Under the pieces are notes generated by a model. It was not told the DNA's origin, searched no databases, and worked only from the letters and a program-made list of their open reading frames with translations. A stretch of 64,000 nt of DNA from an uncultured Hormoscilla sp. (lineage in GTDB: Bacteria > Cyanobacteriota > Cyanobacteriia > Cyanobacteriales > Desertifilaceae). Within the stretch, counting starts at the first letter, position 1, and every line of letters begins with the position of its first letter. This document shows positions 1 to 63,240 of this stretch, piece by piece. The stretch is taken from the NCBI GenBank assembly GCA_963921275.4, contig OZ001293.3, forward strand, positions 2,240,001-2,304,000, in the 5' to 3' direction. Position numbers and translations under genes: made by a program.

Positions 1-93
1 GGGGAATTTAACCCCCATGCGGTCAGAGTTCCCGGCTAATGAAACCGGGCTAGCGTTCCGTGTTTGACCACGTTAGGCTAGAACGAATCGCAC
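1..93 (-). ncRNA. Group II intron 5' end (third copy of ORF-less intron B, runs off the window)
   Basis: Minus strand starts GTGCGATTCGTTCTAG at 93. Positions 1-93 match the 5' ends of the copies ending at 25872 and 46806. Confidence 0.9.
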
Positions 94-23079: not shown

Positions 23080-23964
23080 TTATTGTTTGGCCTGACCGTT
23101 CCAGCGAATGCCCAGAAAAATGTCGTACAGAAAGTTCCCCAAATCTTTTGCTTGCAGCAGTCCCAAGGTTTGATGACAGCCTTTAGCATCCAGTAGGGGC
23201 TTGACAGCCTGGTAGGCAGGCTGATATTTGTACCAGGGCATGGAGGGCCAGAGGTGATGAACCAGATGGTAATTCTGTCCGCCAATCAGCAGATTCAGCA
23301 TGGGACTGGGGTAAACTCTGGCATTCTTCCAGCGATCGCGTTCCTGAAAGGGACGATGGGGTAAATAATCGAAAAATAGCCCCAGGACCAGTCCCACCAC
23401 CCCAGCGGGGACAAACCAGAAGTTAAGAATATACCCGATAAAGCCGTAGTGACAAGCAAGCAAGACGATCGACGCTAGGAAAGCCCGACTCAAAAACCAT
23501 TCGAGTAACTCGTACTTACGCCACAGCCGACGCTGGAAGAAGTATACTTCATGGTAAAAGAATCTGGCGTTAATCAGCCAGAGGGGACCGCCAGTGGAGA
23601 CAAAATGATCTGGATCATTTTCAGGGTCGTTGACATGGGCATGATGATGTAGATGTACCCGGGTGAACACCGGAAAGGTAAAACCTAGCATCAGCGCACT
23701 GCCATGTCCTAAAATAGCATTCAGCACGCGGTTAGCATGAGCTACATGATGAGAGGCATCGTGAATTACGGTTCCCACCATGTGTAGGGCAACTACGTTC
23801 AAGCCAAAGCAGCACCAGTCTGGCCAATTCCAACGCCAGTAGCCGCAGGTGGAGAGCACTACCATTCCTACCGCTACCAGAAACATCAGTAAATTGAGAT
23901 TGAAGCCGCCAGTTGGACCGAGAAACTCTTTGGGAACCGTCAGGGGCTTGGTCGCCTCCGACAT
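23080..23964 (-). CDS. crtR: Beta-carotene hydroxylase
   Basis: HDASH, HLHHH, DYLPH, QNYHLVHHL histidine boxes. Confidence 0.92.
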   Translation of the reverse strand: MSEATKPLTVPKEFLGPTGGFNLNLLMFLVAVGMVVLSTCGYWRWNWPDWCCFGLNVVALHMVGTVIHDASHHVAHANRVLNAILGHGSALMLGFTFPVFTRVHLHHHAHVNDPENDPDHFVSTGGPLWLINARFFYHEVYFFQRRLWRKYELLEWFLSRAFLASIVLLACHYGFIGYILNFWFVPAGVVGLVLGLFFDYLPHRPFQERDRWKNARVYPSPMLNLLIGGQNYHLVHHLWPSMPWYKYQPAYQAVKPLLDAKGCHQTLGLLQAKDLGNFLYDIFLGIRWNGQAKQ

Positions 23965-25001
23965 TATTTTATACTCCTGATGATGTATATTATTACTTGG
24001 GTAGTATAGGATATTCTTGATAAATTGTAAAGTTTTGTGATGTGAGCTGACAACATCTACAGCTGGCTGCGGTTCGCCCGTGGTTATACGGCCGTCAGCT
24101 TAAATCACCAATTAATATCATGTCGGGTTGAATGCACCTGATTAAGCGGCCTTGATTTTTGGCCACCAATGATATAAGGTCAACCCCTCAATTAACTCTT
24201 GCTGTTGGAGTAATTGGCGACATCGCTCAACCGGTGTCTTCCACCTCATCAATGCTATTAAACGCTTTGTTGGCTAAAGGTTCATCGATTAATGGCCATA
24301 ACCGCTCAGCTGGTTGCAACTCTGGTGAATAGGGGGGCAGGGGGAACAGGTGAATCCCTTCAGGCACCTGGAGCTTTTCCGTCATATGCTAGCTAGCCTG
24401 GTGGAGAGGGAGAATTACCCGTTTATCTTTGCCAACTTGGAAATGATAGGCAAAGTCTTCGAGCACCGCAGCGAATAGCTGGCTATTCACCTCGGGAAGA
24501 AGCCACCAGTATCTCCTGTTTGGGGTTGGACAAAACCGTACAACCACAACCATTCCCGTTTCCAGTTGACCTTGGCAATCGGCACTGAGAGTGCTTCTAC
24601 CCAGACAGGGCGAGTCACTGGCTGCAATCCGATGGGATGTTCATCTTCTGCCCAAATCTCGACGGTAGCTTCGGAATTGACTGTTGAATCCGTTCCACCT
24701 CTACGAGCAGTTTTTTTTGCCATTCAGACTGAACTTCCTCTACCGCCTCAATATGCTCAGGACGCGGCACTCTTAAACGAAACCCCATCGGCTTAAGATC
24801 TACCCACCCTTGTTGCCAGCTAATACAGATACCAAAGGCATCCCTCAAGTAGTCACAGACAGAGGCGCCCATTCCAAAGACCTCCATCGGGGGCGAGCCC
24901 ACAGCAATTGGGCCTGTTGTATATCATCGAGTTTCGAGTGCGATTCGTTCTAGCCTAACGTGGTCAAACACGGAACGCTGGTCTAGGAAACTAGAAACTC
25001 T

Positions 25002-25872
25002 GGATGGGGTCGAGCCGGGAATCGCTTCCCGACCCTCCCTTGAGGAACCGGACTTGCGATTTTCACCGCATCCGGCTACTGGGTACTAGGCCCTTTTCAT
25101 AGGTAGACTTAATAGGAATTACTTCCGTTAGCCCTTGCCGCCTATCTTTTCTTCCCTTTCCTGGTTTAGCGAGTGGTTGTTCTGATAACCGTTAGTATCA
25201 CCATTTTCAAGTCAGTTTTACCAGTTATCCATACCTTATCCTCCACTTGCGTTTCGGATTAGTTCCGTGGCTTTTTAGGATTACTCATTCCAGCAGCTTC
25301 CTAGTATCACCGACCCACGTCAGCGCTGGCTACCCAGCATCATCTACATTACTGTAGATGTTATCCCAGGAATTACCCCGGGCATTCGCTTCTTGGGCCA
25401 TCCCTCCCCCCGTGGCTTGCGCTTAACATCTAACTTGTCCTGATGGACAGCACACGAGAGGTTACTTCGTTCCCTAACAACATTTCGCGATACCTTTAGG
25501 TCCACACTATACCCCGGGAGCTATTTGAGTACTATATTAGCCAGAGTCTAAAACTAATACTAGCTACCATTTCCTTTTTAGGCCAGCGCATATAGCCTTA
25601 TTTCGCTGGTTCCTTATAACGAGGCTTGCACATGTTTGCCTGCTCTAACCTTGGATATCTTTCCTAGCGGCGTCACCGGCTTAGGCTGCCAGTTATCCTA
25701 CATTTGAGTCCTCGCTTAGCACCACGATGATGTCGCTTCGTAGCACCGAGGACCGGTGTCACCCCCGTACCTGGGGGGAGGGGAATTTAACCCCCATGCG
25801 GTCAGAGTTCCCGGCTAATGAAACCGGGCTAGCGTTCCGTGTTTGACCACGTTAGGCTAGAACGAATCGCAC
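25002..25872 (-). ncRNA. ORF-less group II intron B (antisense within intron A)
   Basis: GTGCG...DV/DVI. Nearly identical to 45937-46806. Confidence 0.93.
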
Positions 25873-25896
25873 AGTACTCATGAGGGTTAGATTCCC

Positions 25897-26653
25897 GTGC
25901 GATGAGTTCCAGCCTAACGTAGTCATATACGGAACGCTGGCCTAGGAAACTAGGAACTCTGGTAATCATGGGGGTTTAATTCCCCCTCCCCAGGTACAGG
26001 GGTAACACCGGTTGGAGGCGCTGCGAAATAACATCGTCGTGGTGCTAAGCGAGGACTCAAATGTAGGATAGCTGGCAGCCCAAGCCAGTGAGGACGCTAG
26101 GAAAGATGTCCATGGCTAGAACAAGCGAACCTATGTAAACCTCGTTAAACCCAACCAGCGAAATAAGGCTTAATGCGCTGGAACAAAAGTTAATGCAGTT
26201 AGTGTTAATTAGGGAATTGGCTAACATTGTACCCAAATAACTGCCGGGGAAAAGTAGGGGCCTAAAGGCATCGTGAAATGATACCAGGGAACGAAGTAAC
26301 CCTTCGTGTGCTGTCCTAAAGGACCAGTCAGATGTGAAGCGCAAGCCGCGAGTGGGAAAGATGGCCTAAGAAGCAAATGCCCGGAGTAATGCCTGGGATA
26401 TGCAGACGTAGGTCGGTGATAGTTGGAAGTCTTGGGTAAAAGTAGCCCTAAATATGCCTACAGCTCGGGGGAAACCTGTCAGAGATGGATAAGCTCAAGG
26501 GGCCAAATCTCATGAGACGAGGGACAACGGGAGTAATCCCGAAGTTACCTACCAGTGACAAGGACCAACTACCCAGTAGCCGTGTGCGGTGAAAGTCGCA
26601 TGCACGGTTCCGAACGGGAGGGTTGTCCCGCGAGGGACAGCTCGACCCCTAAT
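25897..26653 (+). ncRNA. ORF-less group II intron C (sense within intron A)
   Basis: GTGCGATGAG start, DV at about 26577-26610, end ACCCCTAAT. Confidence 0.93.
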
Positions 26654-27637
26654 TCTCCCCAGGCACGGGGGTAACACCGGTTGGAGGTGCTGCGGAGTAA
26701 CATCGCCGTGGTGCTAAGCGAGAACTTAAATGTAGGATAGCTGATAGCCTAAATCGGCGACGCCGCGCTTGTTAGATGTCCAAGGTCAGAATAAGCGAAT
26801 TCATGAAATGATACTAGGGAACGAAGTAACCTCTCATGAGCTGTCCTCATTTGGACAAGTTAGATGTAAAACGGAAGCCATGAGGGGAGAGATGGCCCAA
26901 GAAGCAAAAGCCTGGGGTAATTCCTATGGATACGCTGACGTGGGTCGGTGATAGATAGAGTCTTTGGGTGAAAGTAACCTTAATGTTTTAGATCAGGAGA
27001 AATCCTAGATAATGAATGTTGGACTAAAGACCTGACCGGGTAAAACTTGGAGAACCTAGTAAATTAGGTAAATGTTAGTAAAGAGCGGTTAAAATGGGTT
27101 GGTACTGTTATCCCCCGCGAACCTTCCGGAGTTAGGCATATATGTAGTCTGAGACTAACCATAAGGGGTGAAATTGCATGAAGAAAGGGACAAAGGGAGT
27201 AATTCTGAGTAATTATACTTAGGACAAAGGCTATCTACCCAGTAGCCGTGTGCGGTGAAAGTCGCTCTTCAGGTTCCGAAAGGGAGGGTTGGGAGGTGAC
27301 TCCTAGCTCGACCCCAACTCTGCTTTCCCCAGCATTGTGACGCCGTAAATCTCCCAACGCAGCTACAAGAAATGCGGTTGTAACTACGAACCAGCTCGTA
27401 AATCCAATCCCGACTGTAGCCCGTCACCGCTGCTACTTCCTCTCGGGGTCGGCCTTGGGCTAATAACCAGATGATTTGATAATGTGAGCGCTCAATCGGA
27501 TGAGAAGTCTGACGGTAGCGTTGTTCCAATTCCTCAACTGTGAGATGGGAGAAAATACTGATGCGTTTGGGCATTACCAGTGTACCAGGAGGGGACTATT
27601 CTATATTAGGTGCATTCAACCCGACATGATATAACAA

Positions 27638-28837
27638 TTAAGATAAGCCAAATCTTGTCGGAGACATCTGAGGGATAAAGTCATCGGGAACTCCGCCAGC
27701 CATATGGTTAGCAAATCTCTGGGCAATGGGTGGCACAAATACCATTGGATAAGTGAAACTGGAGAAGACATGAATGCCTATCATCCCAGGAATAGGACCA
27801 ACGGAAGGCAGCATATCCCCACTAAAGGCGACTAAGCAGCTGTGCCAAGTTCCTGCTAGCTGTCCTAAAGCTGGTAAAATCTTCCCTACATGGGTACGAA
27901 TAGCGGCTTCACTGGCAGCTGAGTCTACTTTAGCCTCCGGGTCAGTCAATACTCGACTCATCTGACCTAACCTGATACTACCATCAAGGAACTGAACTGC
28001 ACCAGGATCGAGAATTGGTGGTACGGGTTCGTGCCCCGGGTAGTCCCACAAGCTGTCAACTTCGCAGGCTTTGGCTTCTAAGCCATACCGCTGTAAATTA
28101 ACTGGCATTACAATTGTTCTCAGCTGAATCGGGACAGGTGCAATCTCAATCAGTTCGGCGTGGGTGAAATACAATCGTACTGAAATCCCAGCAACTTTTA
28201 GCATCCGGCGCGAAAAACCACCAGCACAGATAACGGTATTGGCACTGTAATAGCTTCCCCTATCTGTAATTACCCCAGTGATGCGACTTCCATCTCTTAC
28301 TAAGTCCCGCACTTTAGTAATTTCCATCGCGCCGCCATTTCTTCTCATTGCTTCCCAGTAGCCTTTGGCCGTTGCTTGGGGATTGATGTGACCAATCTTG
28401 ACAGTTAAAGCACCACTAATTGCATCTGGATTTAGCAGCGGTTCCCAGCTACAAGCTTCTGCAGTAGATAGTAACTGTGGTTTGATGGCACAGTGCTCAT
28501 ATTCAGCGAGAACAGCTTGGGGGTTATCATCCCTGTCAATGGTTAAGAGCAAGTCTAACTCGCGGAACTCGGTATCAGCGCCTAATTCTGCTGAGAGGAT
28601 CTGATGACGTTCTTTTCCTTCAAGACATAGTTGCCTGGTAATATCAGAAGTACCAGACCAGTAAGCAAGAGTTCCATAACTATAACGAGTGGCATTTTCA
28701 GGTGTTGCCTGTTGTTCTATTAGCAGTACATAAAAGCCTTTTTTCACGAGTTCGTATCCTAGGGCCGCACCAGTAATGCCTGCACCGACCACGATCCAAT
28801 CGTAAGTTTTCATATAAGTTTTTATAGTTGCTACCAC
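27638..28837 (-). CDS. FAD-dependent oxidoreductase (DAO family)
   Basis: WIVVGAGITG dinucleotide-binding motif. Intact 399-aa ORF. Confidence 0.88.
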   Translation of the reverse strand: MVATIKTYMKTYDWIVVGAGITGAALGYELVKKGFYVLLIEQQATPENATRYSYGTLAYWSGTSDITRQLCLEGKERHQILSAELGADTEFRELDLLLTIDRDDNPQAVLAEYEHCAIKPQLLSTAEACSWEPLLNPDAISGALTVKIGHINPQATAKGYWEAMRRNGGAMEITKVRDLVRDGSRITGVITDRGSYYSANTVICAGGFSRRMLKVAGISVRLYFTHAELIEIAPVPIQLRTIVMPVNLQRYGLEAKACEVDSLWDYPGHEPVPPILDPGAVQFLDGSIRLGQMSRVLTDPEAKVDSAASEAAIRTHVGKILPALGQLAGTWHSCLVAFSGDMLPSVGPIPGMIGIHVFSSFTYPMVFVPPIAQRFANHMAGGVPDDFIPQMSPTRFGLS

Positions 28838-42029: not shown

Positions 42030-43681
42030 CGGGGGGTTTTCCGTGTCCGTTCTTGCCCGTATGATATTTGCCTACCTCATATTGCCTTACATTGAACCCC
42101 AGAAAGTCAAATCCCGGGTTATCACTGTGTAGCGTATGGGTTATCTTTGTCTTTTCCGGCTTGAGTTCTAACCCCATTTCTTTCAGCCATTCTGCTATGA
42201 CCCTCTGCCCTTGCTCGATCATGTCGCGGTCCTTGTGCAGAACTACAAAGTCATCGGCGTATCTAACTACTGTCAGTTCCTGCCTTTTCACCTTGTTATT
42301 TCTTGCTAGGGACTTGACCCTTTCTTCTATTCCATGTAAGGCCACATTTGCCAGCAGAGGCGATATGACTCCACCCTGTGGGGTCCCTTCTATGGTTTCA
42401 AACATCTGTCCTGCATCTATCACACCGGCTTTAACCAGGCGCGTATCTGTCTAGGAAAGGTAGGTGAGGTATTTAATTTTGTGAGCAGCGCTTGGTGGTC
42501 AATCTTATCAAAGCATTTAGCAATGTCTGCATCTAAAACCCATTTGGATTTTTTGTTGATGCTGTTGTATATTGCTTCAATTGCATCATGGCACCCTCTA
42601 CCTGGCCTAAAGCCGTAGGAATTTGCTTCAAAATACGCTTCCCATTCGGGATAAGTGCGCAAGTTTTACTAATCCCTGTAGTGCTCTGTCATACATCACT
42701 GGTATTCCTAATGGACGTTTTTCATCCCTTCCTGGCTTCGGTATCCACACTCGTCGTGCAGGCTGAGTAGAGGTTGAGATTGTTAGTTGTCCTACCAATT
42801 TCAGACGCTGCGCTGGGGTCAGGGATTTTACACCATCCACACCGGCAGTCTTCTTGCCTTGGTTTTTTTGCGTTACCCGTCGTACTGCTAAACACTTGGC
42901 TGACCAGGATTTTACCAGTAACCTCCTTTGCTTGCGAACTGTCCGCTTATCACCACGTTGTGCCGCTCTGTAAATTCTCAGAAGCAGCTTAAAGACCCTT
43001 CGCTCTAGCTTGCGCCAGGGGATTGTCTTCCATTCATATTCATGATGACGATGTTTGCAAAGGACCCTGTTCATAACGTTTGTACTGCTACTTACAAATT
43101 CACAATTGACATTACCATGAGGGCGTCAGCATATCCTATCCATTATAGATAGGCATTTGCTTTTCCACTCAATCCTTCCCAGTCATGACCTGCTATCATG
43201 TAAGCTCTTGTTGCGCCTTTGGTGGCTACTCTATCTATCGACCAAGATACGAGAGTACATAACCGGGTTACTTCGTTCCTACAGATGATTGGTTGTAGCT
43301 AAGGATGGATTCCTTACGCCGGGTTTGTTGTCGGTGCTTATTGGTCGGAACATTATCCGCCAACGACCTATATCCTTTCCCTTTTGGGCCAGTGTGTCAG
43401 CCTTATTACACTGGTTCGCTCTGACGACGTTGCAAATCTTTGTTTTATGCTCATCATGGCTACTTCCTCGACGATAACCGATTTGGGCTACCAGTCAGTG
43501 CGCCTTTCATTCCCGCTTTACGGATTGATGCCATCGCTACCGTCGGGAATGTGCTGTCACTCCTGCACCTGGAGGGATGGACTTTCACCATCATCATCTG
43601 TAAGTTGTCTAGGCTAATGAAACCTAGCTAGTGGTCCCCCATATGACTCGTGTCATGTTTTTTACACGAAAAGAATCGCAC
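42030..43681 (-). mobile_element. ltrA: RT-encoding group II intron E, frameshifted and 3'-truncated
   Basis: GTGCG at 43681. ORF from 43074 with TAGVDG, RPLGIP, YGFRPGR, PQGGVISPLLAN, YADD, FLGF. Predicted EBS1 AATGTT is complementary to the flanking AACATT. Confidence 0.92.
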
Positions 43682-45097: not shown

Positions 45098-48000
45098 TAG
45101 AGTCCAAAGTTTGATAATTTTGTCCCGACTGGCTGAAACTAAGGTTTTACCATCCGGGCTGAAGGTGACGCTACTTACCCAATCACTATGTCCCATCAAG
45201 GTGTTCAGCAACTTACCCTGAAGACTCCAGAGTTTGACCGTGTTGTCCCCACTCCCAGAGGCGATCGTCTCCCCGTCGGGGCTAAAGGCCACAGAGAAAA
45301 CGCTATCATCATGACCTCTGAAGGTGTCGAGCAATTTTCCCGACCGACTCCAAAGTTTCACCGTTTTATCCAAACTAGCTGAGGCAATGCGATCGCCTTG
45401 GGGACTCCATTTTACACTGGTGACCTGATCGCCGTGATCCTTTAAGGTGTTCAGCAATTCGCCGTTGCGTCGCCAGACCTTGATTGTCTTATCCGCACTT
45501 CCCGAGACCAGATACTGCCCGTCGGGACTCCAACTGATACTGGTCACGGGTCCGGCATGTCCTTCTAGGGTTGTCAATAGCTTACCGTCCCGCCGCCAGA
45601 TCTTAACCGTGCCATCCCGACTGGCCGTGGCTATCAGCCGACCATTGGGGCTGAAACTGACAGACAAGACTTCCTCTTTATGCCCCTCTAGCATGATGAA
45701 AGGCTGTAGTTTTTTCTGTTCTTGCAGCAAACTCGATCGCCGCCAGATTTTGACAGTCCCGTCCCAGCTTGCCGAGGCTATCAGTCTGCCATCGGGGCTG
45801 AAACTGACGCTAGTGACCCGATCGCCATGTCCGGACAGGATTTTAATCAATTCACCGTCAGTCCCCCAGAGTTTAATCGTATTATCTGCACTGGCTTAGG
45901 CAATCAGCAGATCGTCTGAACTCCAGCTGACACTATGGATGGGGTCGAGCCGGGAATCGCTTCCCGACCCTCCCTTAAGGAACCGGACTTGCGATTTTCA
46001 CCGCATCCGGCTACTGGGTACTAGGCCCTTTTCATAGGTAGACTTAATAGGAATTACTTCCGTTAGCCCTTGCCGCCTGTCTTTTCTTCCCTTTCCTGGT
46101 TTAGCGAGTGGTTGTTCTGATAACCGTTAGTATCACCATTTTCAAGTCAGTTTTACCAGTTATCCATACCTTATCCTCCACTTGCGTTTCGGATTAGTTC
46201 CGTGGCTTTTTAGGATTACTCATTCCAGCAGCTTCCTAGTATCACCGACCACGTCAGCGCTGGCTACCCAGCATCATCTACATTACTGTAGATGTTATCC
46301 CAGGAATTACCCCGGGCATTCGCTTCTTGGGCCATCCCTCCCCCCGTGGCTTGCGCTTAACATCTAACTTGTCCTGATGGACAGCACACGAGAGGTTACT
46401 TCGTTCCCTAACAACATTTCGCGATACCTTTAGGTCCACACTATACCCCGGGAGCTATTTGAGTACTATATTAGCCAGAGTCTAAAACTAATACTAGCTA
46501 CCATTTCCTTTTTAGGCCAGCGCATATAGCCTTATTTCGCTGGTTCCTTATAACGAGGCTTGCACATGTTTGCCTGCTCTAACCTTGGATATCTTTCCTA
46601 GCGGCGTCACCGGCTTAGGCTGCCAGTTATCCTACATTTGAGTCCTCGCTTAGCACCACGATGATGTCGCTTCGTAGCACCGAGGACCGGTGTCACCCCC
46701 GTACCTGGGGGGAGGGGAATTTAACCCCCATGCGGTCAGAGTTCCCGGCTAATGAAACCGGGCTAGCGTTCCGTGTTTGACCACGTTAGGCTAGAACGAA
46801 TCGCACAAACTCCATGAGTATGACCCTGCAAACGGTTGCGCTCTTTGATTTTATATACCGCCTCTTGGAGAGCCGTCTGCACCCGGTCCTTTGTCTGAAC
46901 ATCTGCCCAGTTGCTGGCATCCAGTTTCTTGGCAGCCCGTATCCCTTTTTGCAATGCATCCAGCTGTTTATGGGAGGCGAACAATGCTTATGAGGATGCA
47001 CTCACTGCTTTAATTTCGTTGATTACCGCTTGTCTGAATTGAGATACGGCTTGAAATGTTGAGCCCGCTAAGGTCAATATTACTACCACTGAACCAGCTA
47101 GGGCTAGGCGAAGAAAATTCTGGCGCTGCTTGTCACTTTGCCTGTGCTTTTGCTTCGCGTCTGCCAGGGCGGCCAGTAACTCTTTTTCTTGGCGCAGTTG
47201 TTCCAGCCGAACATAGCTGAGTTCTTCCCGCTTTCGCGCTGCTGACAATTCTGCTAATGACCCATTTTTATCGTTCTCTTTACTCTGGGAAATATATGTT
47301 TCTAGGTCTTCTTGCAGGATTTTATAGCGTTCGTCTGCCAGTTCCGCTAACATCGCTATTTCCTGACGCATTTTTTCTATATACTGATGATTTTCTGCTT
47401 CTTTTTGCCTCAACTCATCCCGTTCTTTCTTTAAGACAACGTCTTCTTGCTGTTGGATAAATTTCCCTAAATAATCATGAACTAGCTGATAGCGCGGGGC
47501 TGCCAATTCCGGAATTAAAGATACTAAACCCGAGCCAACTAAAATATCTAAGATTAAATTGAGTTGCTCCGTATTTGCCAAGTCTGCTGCTAACTCCGCC
47601 CGACTTTTCAGGGGACGATTACCATTTTCATCAGTCAGCAAATACAATACTCGTCTCGCCAGGGGTTGATTTTCTGTGCCGCAGTCCTTGACTAGCTGTT
47701 CTAAAAATCGCTCCACCAGTCTTTGCTTCGGTCCCGATCGCCGATACATGGCCAGAGTGGTAATGTTCTCTGCTTGCAGTTGATATCCCACTACCTGTAA
47801 CTCTATGGGGCGGACTTCTCTCCTTTCTCCTGCTAAGTCCTCGACTAATTCCTTAATCAGAGAGTCTTCTAATTCAAAGTTAGCTTTCTTAGTTAAGCTT
47901 TCGATCACTTCATAGGCATCCTGTGGCGATAAATTACCCAAAGGGTATCTATTGTTTTTATCTAGCAAGTTGCAGTTAATTTCCTCTAAGTCCATCTGCC

Positions 48001-53309: not shown

Positions 53310-53858
53310 GTGCGATTCGTTCAGTGTAAACCACCGGTGAACCAATCGAGGGACACCGGTGGGGGACCACTGGCAGGGTATCATTAGCCCTGATAACTTC
53401 TAGACGATGGTGGTGAAAGCCCACCCCTCCAAGTGCAGGAGTGACAGCACTTACCCCACGGTAGCGATGGCATCAATCCGTGAAGCGGGAATGAAAAGCG
53501 CTCTAACTGATAGACTCCAGAGGTTACTGGTAAGCTCCCGGGCTGCCAAATGTCTAGCGGTACGACGGGTAACGCTAGACAACCAGGGAAAGAAAACCGC
53601 CGGTGTGGATGGTGTAAAATCACTGACCCCAGAGCAAAGACTAGAACTGGTAGGACAAATTGAAATCTCAAATAAGGCTAGGCCTACACGTCGTGTATGG
53701 ATTCCTAAGCCAGGGAGAAATGAAAAGCGGCCATTAGGAATACCCACGATGCACGACCGCGCGACTCAAGGGCTCCTTAAGATTGCGCTCGAACCCGAAT
53801 GGGAAGCGTATATGGAAGGGAACTCATACGGATTCAGACCGGGTCGGGGATGCCACGG
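53310..53858 (+). mobile_element. Deleted RT-encoding group II intron F
   Basis: GTGCG start homologous to intron E. About 200 nt of DI is fused directly to an RT N-terminal fragment (TAGVDG, RPLGIP, YGFRPGRGCH). Confidence 0.88.
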
Positions 53859-54130
53859 CACACAGGAGACATCGAGGAAAAGTTGCTTATCCGATGTACT
53901 CTGCGCGCTTGATGTCCCCCGGATGCACGGCGAAACCCGGGGGACATCATAATCGCACTACGCAGAGCACATCGGAGAGTAATCAGGTAGGGGAGTCATG
54001 TCGATATTCTCAAAAATGTGGTATATTTTGGGTTACTCTTCCATTTGTCTATTGACTTTGTCACAGACTCAGTTCATAATCAAAAGTTGAACTCGTGGTT
54101 TTTGTTTATTTTGAGTAGAGGAGAATAAAA

Positions 54131-61397: not shown

Positions 61398-63240
<1,843 letters not shown>

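Follow-up and report, generated by a model that had tools for sequence, protein, structure and literature searches.

Three group II introns that lack open reading frames (ORFs) are nested within a decayed insertion sequence (IS) of the IS630 family in the chromosome of an uncultured Hormoscilla sp. (assembly GCA_963921275.4). The window, that is the whole stretch of DNA analysed, comprises 64,000 nucleotides (nt) of contig OZ001293.3 (positions 2,240,001-2,304,000), and all positions are numbered within it unless a contig is named. The outer intron, A, lies in the remains of the transposase gene and is itself interrupted by intron B on the minus strand and intron C on the plus strand. It is very probable that the locus is a graveyard of mobile elements, left by successive and independent retromobility events and without any function of its own. 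This reading is carried by the anatomy of the nest, the colinearity of A after removal of the inner introns, the complementarity between exon-binding sites (EBS) and intron-binding sites (IBS), the copy numbers of the introns involved, the decay of A and the presence of reverse transcriptase (RT) genes elsewhere in the genome.

Architecture of the nested locus

Excision of B and C yields an intron A of 754 nt, which ends at 27319 (…GACCCCAACT), and no alignment gap appears at either junction when it is compared with intron D of the same window or with its closest relative in the genome. The identity is 72.5% over 669 aligned nt to intron D and 96.7% over 754 nt to that relative (the sibling, at C1:1540259-1542146, its own inner intron removed). 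Removal of the inner introns at their exact termini leaves an uninterrupted outer intron, which is the mark of a twintron. By this homology to an intact sibling A is a group II intron, but it is decayed and dead, because the region of EBS1 is deleted and domain V is broken. The deletion of 140 nt took out the part of domain I that bears EBS1 in all relatives of A. In domain V of A, the 3' strand has TCTTCA in place of the ATGCAC of the sibling, and the helix is disrupted, its fold energy being -7.2 kcal/mol (C, -14.3 kcal/mol; B, -17.4 kcal/mol). In the sibling twintron, the two domain V elements are above the Rfam cut-off (48.0 and 47.9 bits), whereas A itself retains neither an intact domain V nor the EBS1 region.

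B and C are intact. Both begin with GTGCGAT, in keeping with the group II 5' consensus GUGYG, and have a conserved 3' end, an EBS1 complementary to the 5' exon and a domain V/VI that reaches the gathering score of Rfam RF00029. An earlier note on this DNA had placed three ORF-less introns between IS630 ends, with B and C in opposite orientation 24 bp apart in domain I of A, and had held that A, once freed of both, is colinear with intron D. The identical ends, the intron termini and the alignments confirm all of this. The Rfam Intron_gpII model (cut-off 40 bits), which the earlier note named as a check, recognises B and C and leaves A below the cut-off (Table 1). A further model, group-II-D1D4-2, scored 22 bits against a cut-off of 36, and the label chloroplast-like (CL) for cyanobacterial group II introns is taken from the literature (PMC8919778).

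None of the 93 matches to PF00078 (RVT_1) in the genome falls inside the nest, and the longest ORF there is 95 amino acids (aa). As no protein is encoded by A, B or C, splicing, reverse splicing and cDNA synthesis must come in trans. Many RT open frames of 480-609 aa occur in the genome, including one of 609 aa, the intron-encoded protein (IEP) of a related intron, with RVT_N, RVT_1, GIIM and HNH domains. In Thermosynechococcus elongatus, mobilisation of ORF-less introns by the IEP of another intron has been demonstrated experimentally for TeI3/TeI4 (Mohr, Ghanem and Lambowitz, 2010; PMC2882425).

The host element is equally degraded. IS630 elements have terminal inverted repeats with flanking TA. 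The present one has identical 24-nt ends with TA, encloses 3.5 kb and carries a transposase gene with helix-turn-helix (HTH) and DDE_3 domains, although this gene is a pseudogene. Residues 1-76 of the 354-aa homologue P0003 align with the translated N-terminal part at 75% identity over 76 aa; transposase homologues of 354 aa carry PF13551, PF13592 and PF13358. In the remaining part the HTH_33 match passes the Pfam cut-off, and DDE_3 scores 27.2 bits on a fragment of 52 aa, against a cut-off of 28.6. By tblastn, 98 aa with an internal stop align at 74% identity to residues 226-323 of P0003, and other parts lie in a different frame. No uninterrupted allele of the IS was found when its left arm (822 nt) was searched in 40 relatives, where no close copy occurs; the best match outside the genome is 74% identical over 140 nt, and the sole other copy in the same genome is a fragment of 450 nt (93% identity).

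Intron A lies on the plus strand and the transposase on the minus strand; A is antisense to the gene and therefore cannot splice from its mRNA. The insertion junction was placed by means of protein homologues, and once A is excised the gene is again colinear with IS630 transposases at about residue 85 of 354. It had also been claimed in the earlier note that this excision rejoins the reading frame (GKQ followed by SKLDDIQQ). Frame 0 is indeed open across the join, but GKQ is off the native frame and the gene is broken. Native homologues read …ALGDLRRHNPGAMPKLNDVQQAQLL… across the region, and in the rejoined gene ALGDLRRHNAGES, in the native frame upstream of the junction, and SKLDDIQQAQLL stand in different frames. 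At least three further changes of frame, as well as stops, are present in the transposase. Excision of A does not give back a working frame, and the argument from frame rejoining is weak because A is antisense to a gene already broken in many places.

Table 1. Coordinates of the nest, its flanking genes and further intron-related features of the window.
Feature	Position	Strand	Evidence or remark
FA_desaturase gene	23080-23964	minus	flanking gene
IS630-family left terminal inverted repeat, terminal TA included	24116-24139		24 nt, exact reverse complement of 27608-27631
Remaining transposase pseudogene (HTH_33, DDE_3)	24150-24937	minus	several frameshifts and stops; Pfam HTH_33 34.2 bits
Intron A, 5' segment (nt 1-64 of the reconstruction)	24938-25001	plus	begins GTGCGATTCG; nhmmer 5'-end match 63.2 bits; alignment
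Intron B, 871 nt, ORF-less, intact	25002-25872	minus (25872->25002)	Rfam RF00029 44.4 bits at 25004-25080
EBS1 of B, AGACTC on the minus strand	25544-25549	minus	complements family IBS1 consensus GAGTCT
EBS2 of B, AAGGTT on the minus strand	25647-25652	minus	complements family IBS2 consensus AACCTT at -15..-10
Intron A, domain I hairpin piece between B and C, 24 nt	25873-25896	plus	AGTACTCATGAGGGTTAGATTCCC; colinear with the sibling and D
Intron C, 757 nt, ORF-less, intact	25897-26653	plus	Rfam RF00029 43.9 bits at 26575-26653
EBS1 of C, GGGAAT	26212-26217	plus	6/6 pairing with ATTCCC at 25891-25896, immediately upstream of C
Intron A, 3' segment (nt 89-754)	26654-27319	plus	96.5% over 519 nt (A nt 237-754) to C1:1541629-1542146
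Junction of the 140-nt deletion in A	26801/26802	plus	gap against the sibling, B, C and D in the alignment
Broken domain V/VI of A	27241-27318	plus	Rfam 21.7 bits, cut-off 40
Transposase N-terminal part (HTH), degenerate	27320-27574	minus	Pfam HTH_23 26.2 bits (cut-off 24.6)
IS630-family right terminal inverted repeat, terminal TA included	27608-27631		identical to the left end, inverted
DAO gene	27638-28837	minus	flanking gene
B copy running off the start of the window	1-93	minus	
Orphan intron 3' end	~249	minus	
RT pseudogene	42088-42744	minus	10 stops
Further full B copy	45937-46806	minus	99.66%
Short RT fragment	53701-53898	plus	
Intron D	62038-62872	plus	

Guide sequences and order of insertion

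The EBS1 loop was located by covariation: in intron D, which has 77 copies in the genome, it reads TTGCAC and the 5' exons end in GTGCA or GTGTA. The assignment is backed by this covariation with the 5' flank, which also holds in seven further introns. For EBS2/IBS2 of D, only a CTAG core fits the targets. The EBS1 of C pairs completely with the exon bases before it, and 13 of the 14 C-type 5' ends in the genome are immediately preceded by …ATGRGGGTTARATTCCC, in each case within domain I of another intron, the hosts belonging to several families; the remaining copy occupies a look-alike site outside introns. The domain I motif occurs in 327 copies, of which 13 hold a C-type intron, one holds another intron and 313 are empty. 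C thus sits at the cognate site of an intron-homing lineage, albeit one of low efficiency. Its nearest relatives are copies of 754 nt in unrelated hosts (97.1% and 97.0% identity).

Intron B belongs to a family of 138 full-length copies with at least 97% identity, most at 99.9%, and a difference of 1 nt separates the copy described here from most of the 137 sisters. With 138 copies of an ORF-less intron and 93 RT matches in one genome, B resembles a TeI3-like intron that would be mobilised in trans. Its orientation is antisense only relative to A; it shares the strand of the transposase and of both flanking genes. On this strand B was inserted at …AACCCTCATGAGTACT followed by A, where the family consensus is AACCTT-N3-GAGTCT followed by A, so that the site has one extra or mismatched base (IBS2 AACCCT, IBS1 GAGT(A)CT, +1 A). 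A weight matrix derived from 114 further distinct sites of B gives it a score of 9.65 bits, which exceeds 26 of these 114 sites and is reached by only 0.016% of 200,000 random genome positions.

Several further observations concern the two inner introns. The first 42 nt of A (24938-24979) and of B (25831-25872) are identical, in inverted orientation, and B and C, at 72.6% identity, make up an imperfect palindrome of some 750 bp centred on the 24 nt between them; RNA transcribed from the plus strand may fold back there, and the DNA may be prone to recombination. Elsewhere in the genome, B forms head-to-tail tandem arrays of three copies (C1:5447656-5450268) and two copies (C1:824934-826675), in which each downstream copy has the 3' end of the preceding copy as its 5' exon (…GACCCCATCC followed by GTGCG). 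The arrays look like the product of reinsertion at a site already occupied, with IBS1/IBS2 staying intact upstream. B is also found antisense within the RT gene of another intron at four further loci (C1 ~614358, 826676, 1665452 and 3401340), which have near-identical flanks (…AATCTTRAGGAGTCY before the intron) and an RT match cut at model position ~24-29. Public runs X5-X17, labelled as 13 other organisms in 13 studies, contain a fraction of 0.26-0.39 of the sampled words, approximately the share of B, and a contig of run X5 carries B at a different site that is occupied in this genome as well, indicating that B is present in near-identical form in other samples.

The following course of events is proposed. 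An IS630-family element would have been inserted between the two minus-strand genes, and an ORF-less, group IIB-like intron A may then have entered the transposase gene on its antisense strand. The IS and A would subsequently have decayed, A losing its EBS1 region and the domain V helix. Intact ORF-less B and C, from active lineages, would finally have reverse-spliced into the DNA of the domain I hairpin of A: C into the sense strand, at the site to which its lineage homes (EBS1 GGGAAT, IBS1 ATTCCC), and B, at a distance of 24 nt, into the other strand, where the sequence matches the target of B by chance. The proteins required were probably supplied by RT/maturase/HNH proteins of full-length introns elsewhere in the chromosome, as in TeI3/TeI4.

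The geometry places the IS630 element before A, and A before both B and C. To this extent the nest does record the order of insertions, as had been suggested in the earlier note, but it does not give the order of B and C. Both target sites lie wholly within the 24-nt spacer (25873-25896), whose plus strand provides IBS1 of C, with any IBS2, and whose minus strand provides IBS1/IBS2 of B, so that either insertion could have come first. That A has decayed while B and C remain nearly identical to their families is consistent with A being old and the insertions of B and C recent.

Some points weigh against this account. The mechanism of mobility, the splicing and the timing at this locus are what we infer from sequence. 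The EBS1 of the sibling (GTCAA) does not fit the 5' exon of A (TTTCGA), and the EBS1 of A itself has been deleted. The pairing of B with its IBS1 requires one bulge or mismatch, only three of six positions pairing without a gap. For C, a search for EBS2/IBS2 gave no convincing pairing, and the large number of empty motif copies implies either that homing of C-type introns is inefficient or that the motif alone is not enough for it. C is also a mosaic. Although it is 99-100% identical to two C-type copies of 754 nt in six of eight 100-nt bins, two patches diverge: nt 101-200 (25997-26096) are only 87-92% identical to each of the seven other C-type copies that align lengthwise, and the last 57 nt (26597-26653) are 86% identical to the 754-nt relatives and 94.7% to a 994-nt subtype. 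These patches suggest that recombination among intron lineages has also shaped C. Copying of the divergent patch (nt 95-205) from the host A was considered and rejected, A not being among its best matches.

Alternative explanations and assembly

It could be argued that C was already present in A when the composite twintron moved as a unit, so that the order of A and then C would not be recorded here. The sibling of A does carry a C-type intron, likewise at position 88, the genome contains repeated twintrons whose flanks are identical (the five nests of 1,739-1,740 nt described below), and composite mobility of twintrons is regarded as possible by Mohr et al. (PMC2882425). Nevertheless, the inner intron of the sibling is of the 994-nt subtype and only 85.5% identical to C overall, and the closest relatives of C reside in unrelated hosts. 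Independent homing of C is the simpler account because C-type copies fill the same site, in 13 of 14 cases, across several host families, and joint movement is considered unlikely. The orientation of B might similarly have arisen from an inversion, through recombination between inverted intron copies, instead of insertion into the opposite strand; the shared first 42 nt of A and B and the inverted similarity of B and C across 24 nt would offer substrates. Reversing such an inversion, however, leaves the 5' segment of A inverted relative to the rest of A and B abutting the IS, which is less parsimonious. In addition, the flanks of B fit the target consensus of its family, A is perfectly colinear after excision and B occurs antisense in other introns at independent sites, all of which makes inversion extremely unlikely. 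Stepwise splicing of C and then A as a regulator of transposase expression has next to no probability. Sequential splicing of a cyanobacterial twintron in a protein gene is documented by Pfreundt and Hess (2015; PMC4649490), and one frame is open across the rejoined junction, but the strand of A and C opposite to the transposase, the missing EBS1 region and broken domain V of A, and the further frameshifts and stops of the gene refute it.

With B present 138 times, a mis-join among hundreds of near-identical repeats has to be considered as well. The pieces of short-read (Logan) contigs listed bridge none of the four inner junctions, which is a further point against the proposed reading, and one run contains a single chimeric contig path from 24961 to 25927. 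On the other hand, the chromosome is a single contig of 6.88 Mb without N, and contigs of two runs, which may be those of the source sample, bridge both IS/A junctions (24336-24966 and 27265-27750). All junctions of the nest fall exactly at intron termini, the unique 24-nt spacer and both segments of A are colinear with an independent sibling, and the site of each inner intron agrees with the guide sequences of that intron. A mis-join driven by repeats would connect homologous positions and not put termini inside targets; an artefact is thus very unlikely, and successive insertion is retained as the preferred explanation.

An intron-rich genome and its known counterparts

The genome was surveyed with nhmmer and a conservative pairing of intron 5' and 3' ends, so that the numbers of paired introns and of nests are lower bounds. 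The census gave 301 intron 5' ends, 489 3' (domain V/VI) ends and at least 290 paired introns. At least 15 nests were counted, four of them with an antisense inner intron. A nest of 1,739-1,740 nt with the inner intron at position 767-768 occurs in five copies. The opinion of the earlier note that the present nest is unusual does not hold in view of these numbers and of published precedents in Thermosynechococcus and Methanosarcina. The nest was probably formed by known mechanisms and is ordinary for this genome, and the precedents cover each of its elements except the antisense detail. A literature search (titles and abstract starts) retrieved no report of antisense nested ORF-less introns, nor, within the same scope, of a cyanobacterium with several hundred group II introns; the maximum in one survey is 101 per genome (PMC8919778).

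At E <= 1e-50, the intron superfamily was detected in all four other genomes of the genus and in none of 36 genomes from 29 other genera. One congener carries, on contig C27 (19760-21558) and likewise on C13 and C2, a B-like intron of 90-93% identity that an antisense intron fragment splits between B positions 542 and 553. These three copies indicate that antisense nests extend beyond this genome and may be copied as units.

The nest has no plausible function and matters little in itself. It is a clean example of ORF-less group II introns that keep moving after the death of their host, of one lineage specialised in invading a conserved hairpin of its relatives and of a high-copy lineage that lands in either orientation wherever short guides match. 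More weight attaches to the wider context, namely a 7-Mb genome with at least 290 paired introns, 489 domain V/VI ends and 138 copies of a single intron of 871 nt. As a tentative proposal, somewhat less probable than its opposite, the nest may be a datable snapshot of an ongoing intron burst, in which B would be a currently active ORF-less retrotransposon of relaxed specificity that inserts on either strand, whether it can later be spliced or not, and dead introns in dead IS elements would serve as cost-free landing pads whose domain I hairpin is targeted from both strands. If this is true, such landing pads let a bacterial genome carry several hundred introns, far more than the published 101, and the genome would be a natural model of eukaryote-like intron proliferation.

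The closest counterpart is the burst of TeI3/TeI4 and related group IIB-type introns in T. elongatus. The report on it describes ORF-less derivatives that outnumber ORF-containing introns and are mobilised in trans, as would be the case here. It also describes lineages retargeted via their EBS, one lineage with a conserved homing site within other introns, and some insertions into IS elements (Mohr, Ghanem and Lambowitz, 2010; PMC2882425). In the twintrons of T. elongatus, however, the inner intron occupies domain IV of an ORF-containing host, where it separates the first two ATGs of the IEP gene (PMC2882425), whereas here a domain I hairpin of a dead ORF-less host holds two inner introns on opposite strands. 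The copy numbers differ about tenfold, with 28 introns in T. elongatus (PMC2882425) and at least 290 paired introns here. The Tery_4732 twintron of Trichodesmium erythraeum is similar in that its inner intron is located in domain I of the host, near the theta-theta' element; that study also gives the 5' consensus as GUGCGAUUC, which is shared here, and describes ORF-less introns in the genome that rely on trans factors (Pfreundt and Hess, 2015; PMC4649490). In contrast, the host of that twintron is a conserved protein gene, an IEP ORF is present in each of the two introns and sequential splicing has been demonstrated (PMC4649490), while the present nest, known from DNA alone, has dead IS exons, no ORF and a dead outer intron. 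In the arrays of Methanosarcina acetivorans (Dai and Zimmerly, 2003), as summarised in a review by Zimmerly and Semper (2015; PMC4424553), repeated site-specific homing into group II introns, by ORF-less introns among others, resembles the situation described here. Up to five introns are nested there without coding exons, providing a perpetual homing site; these arrays differ in their archaeal host and in homing into the ORF regions of introns (PMC4424553).

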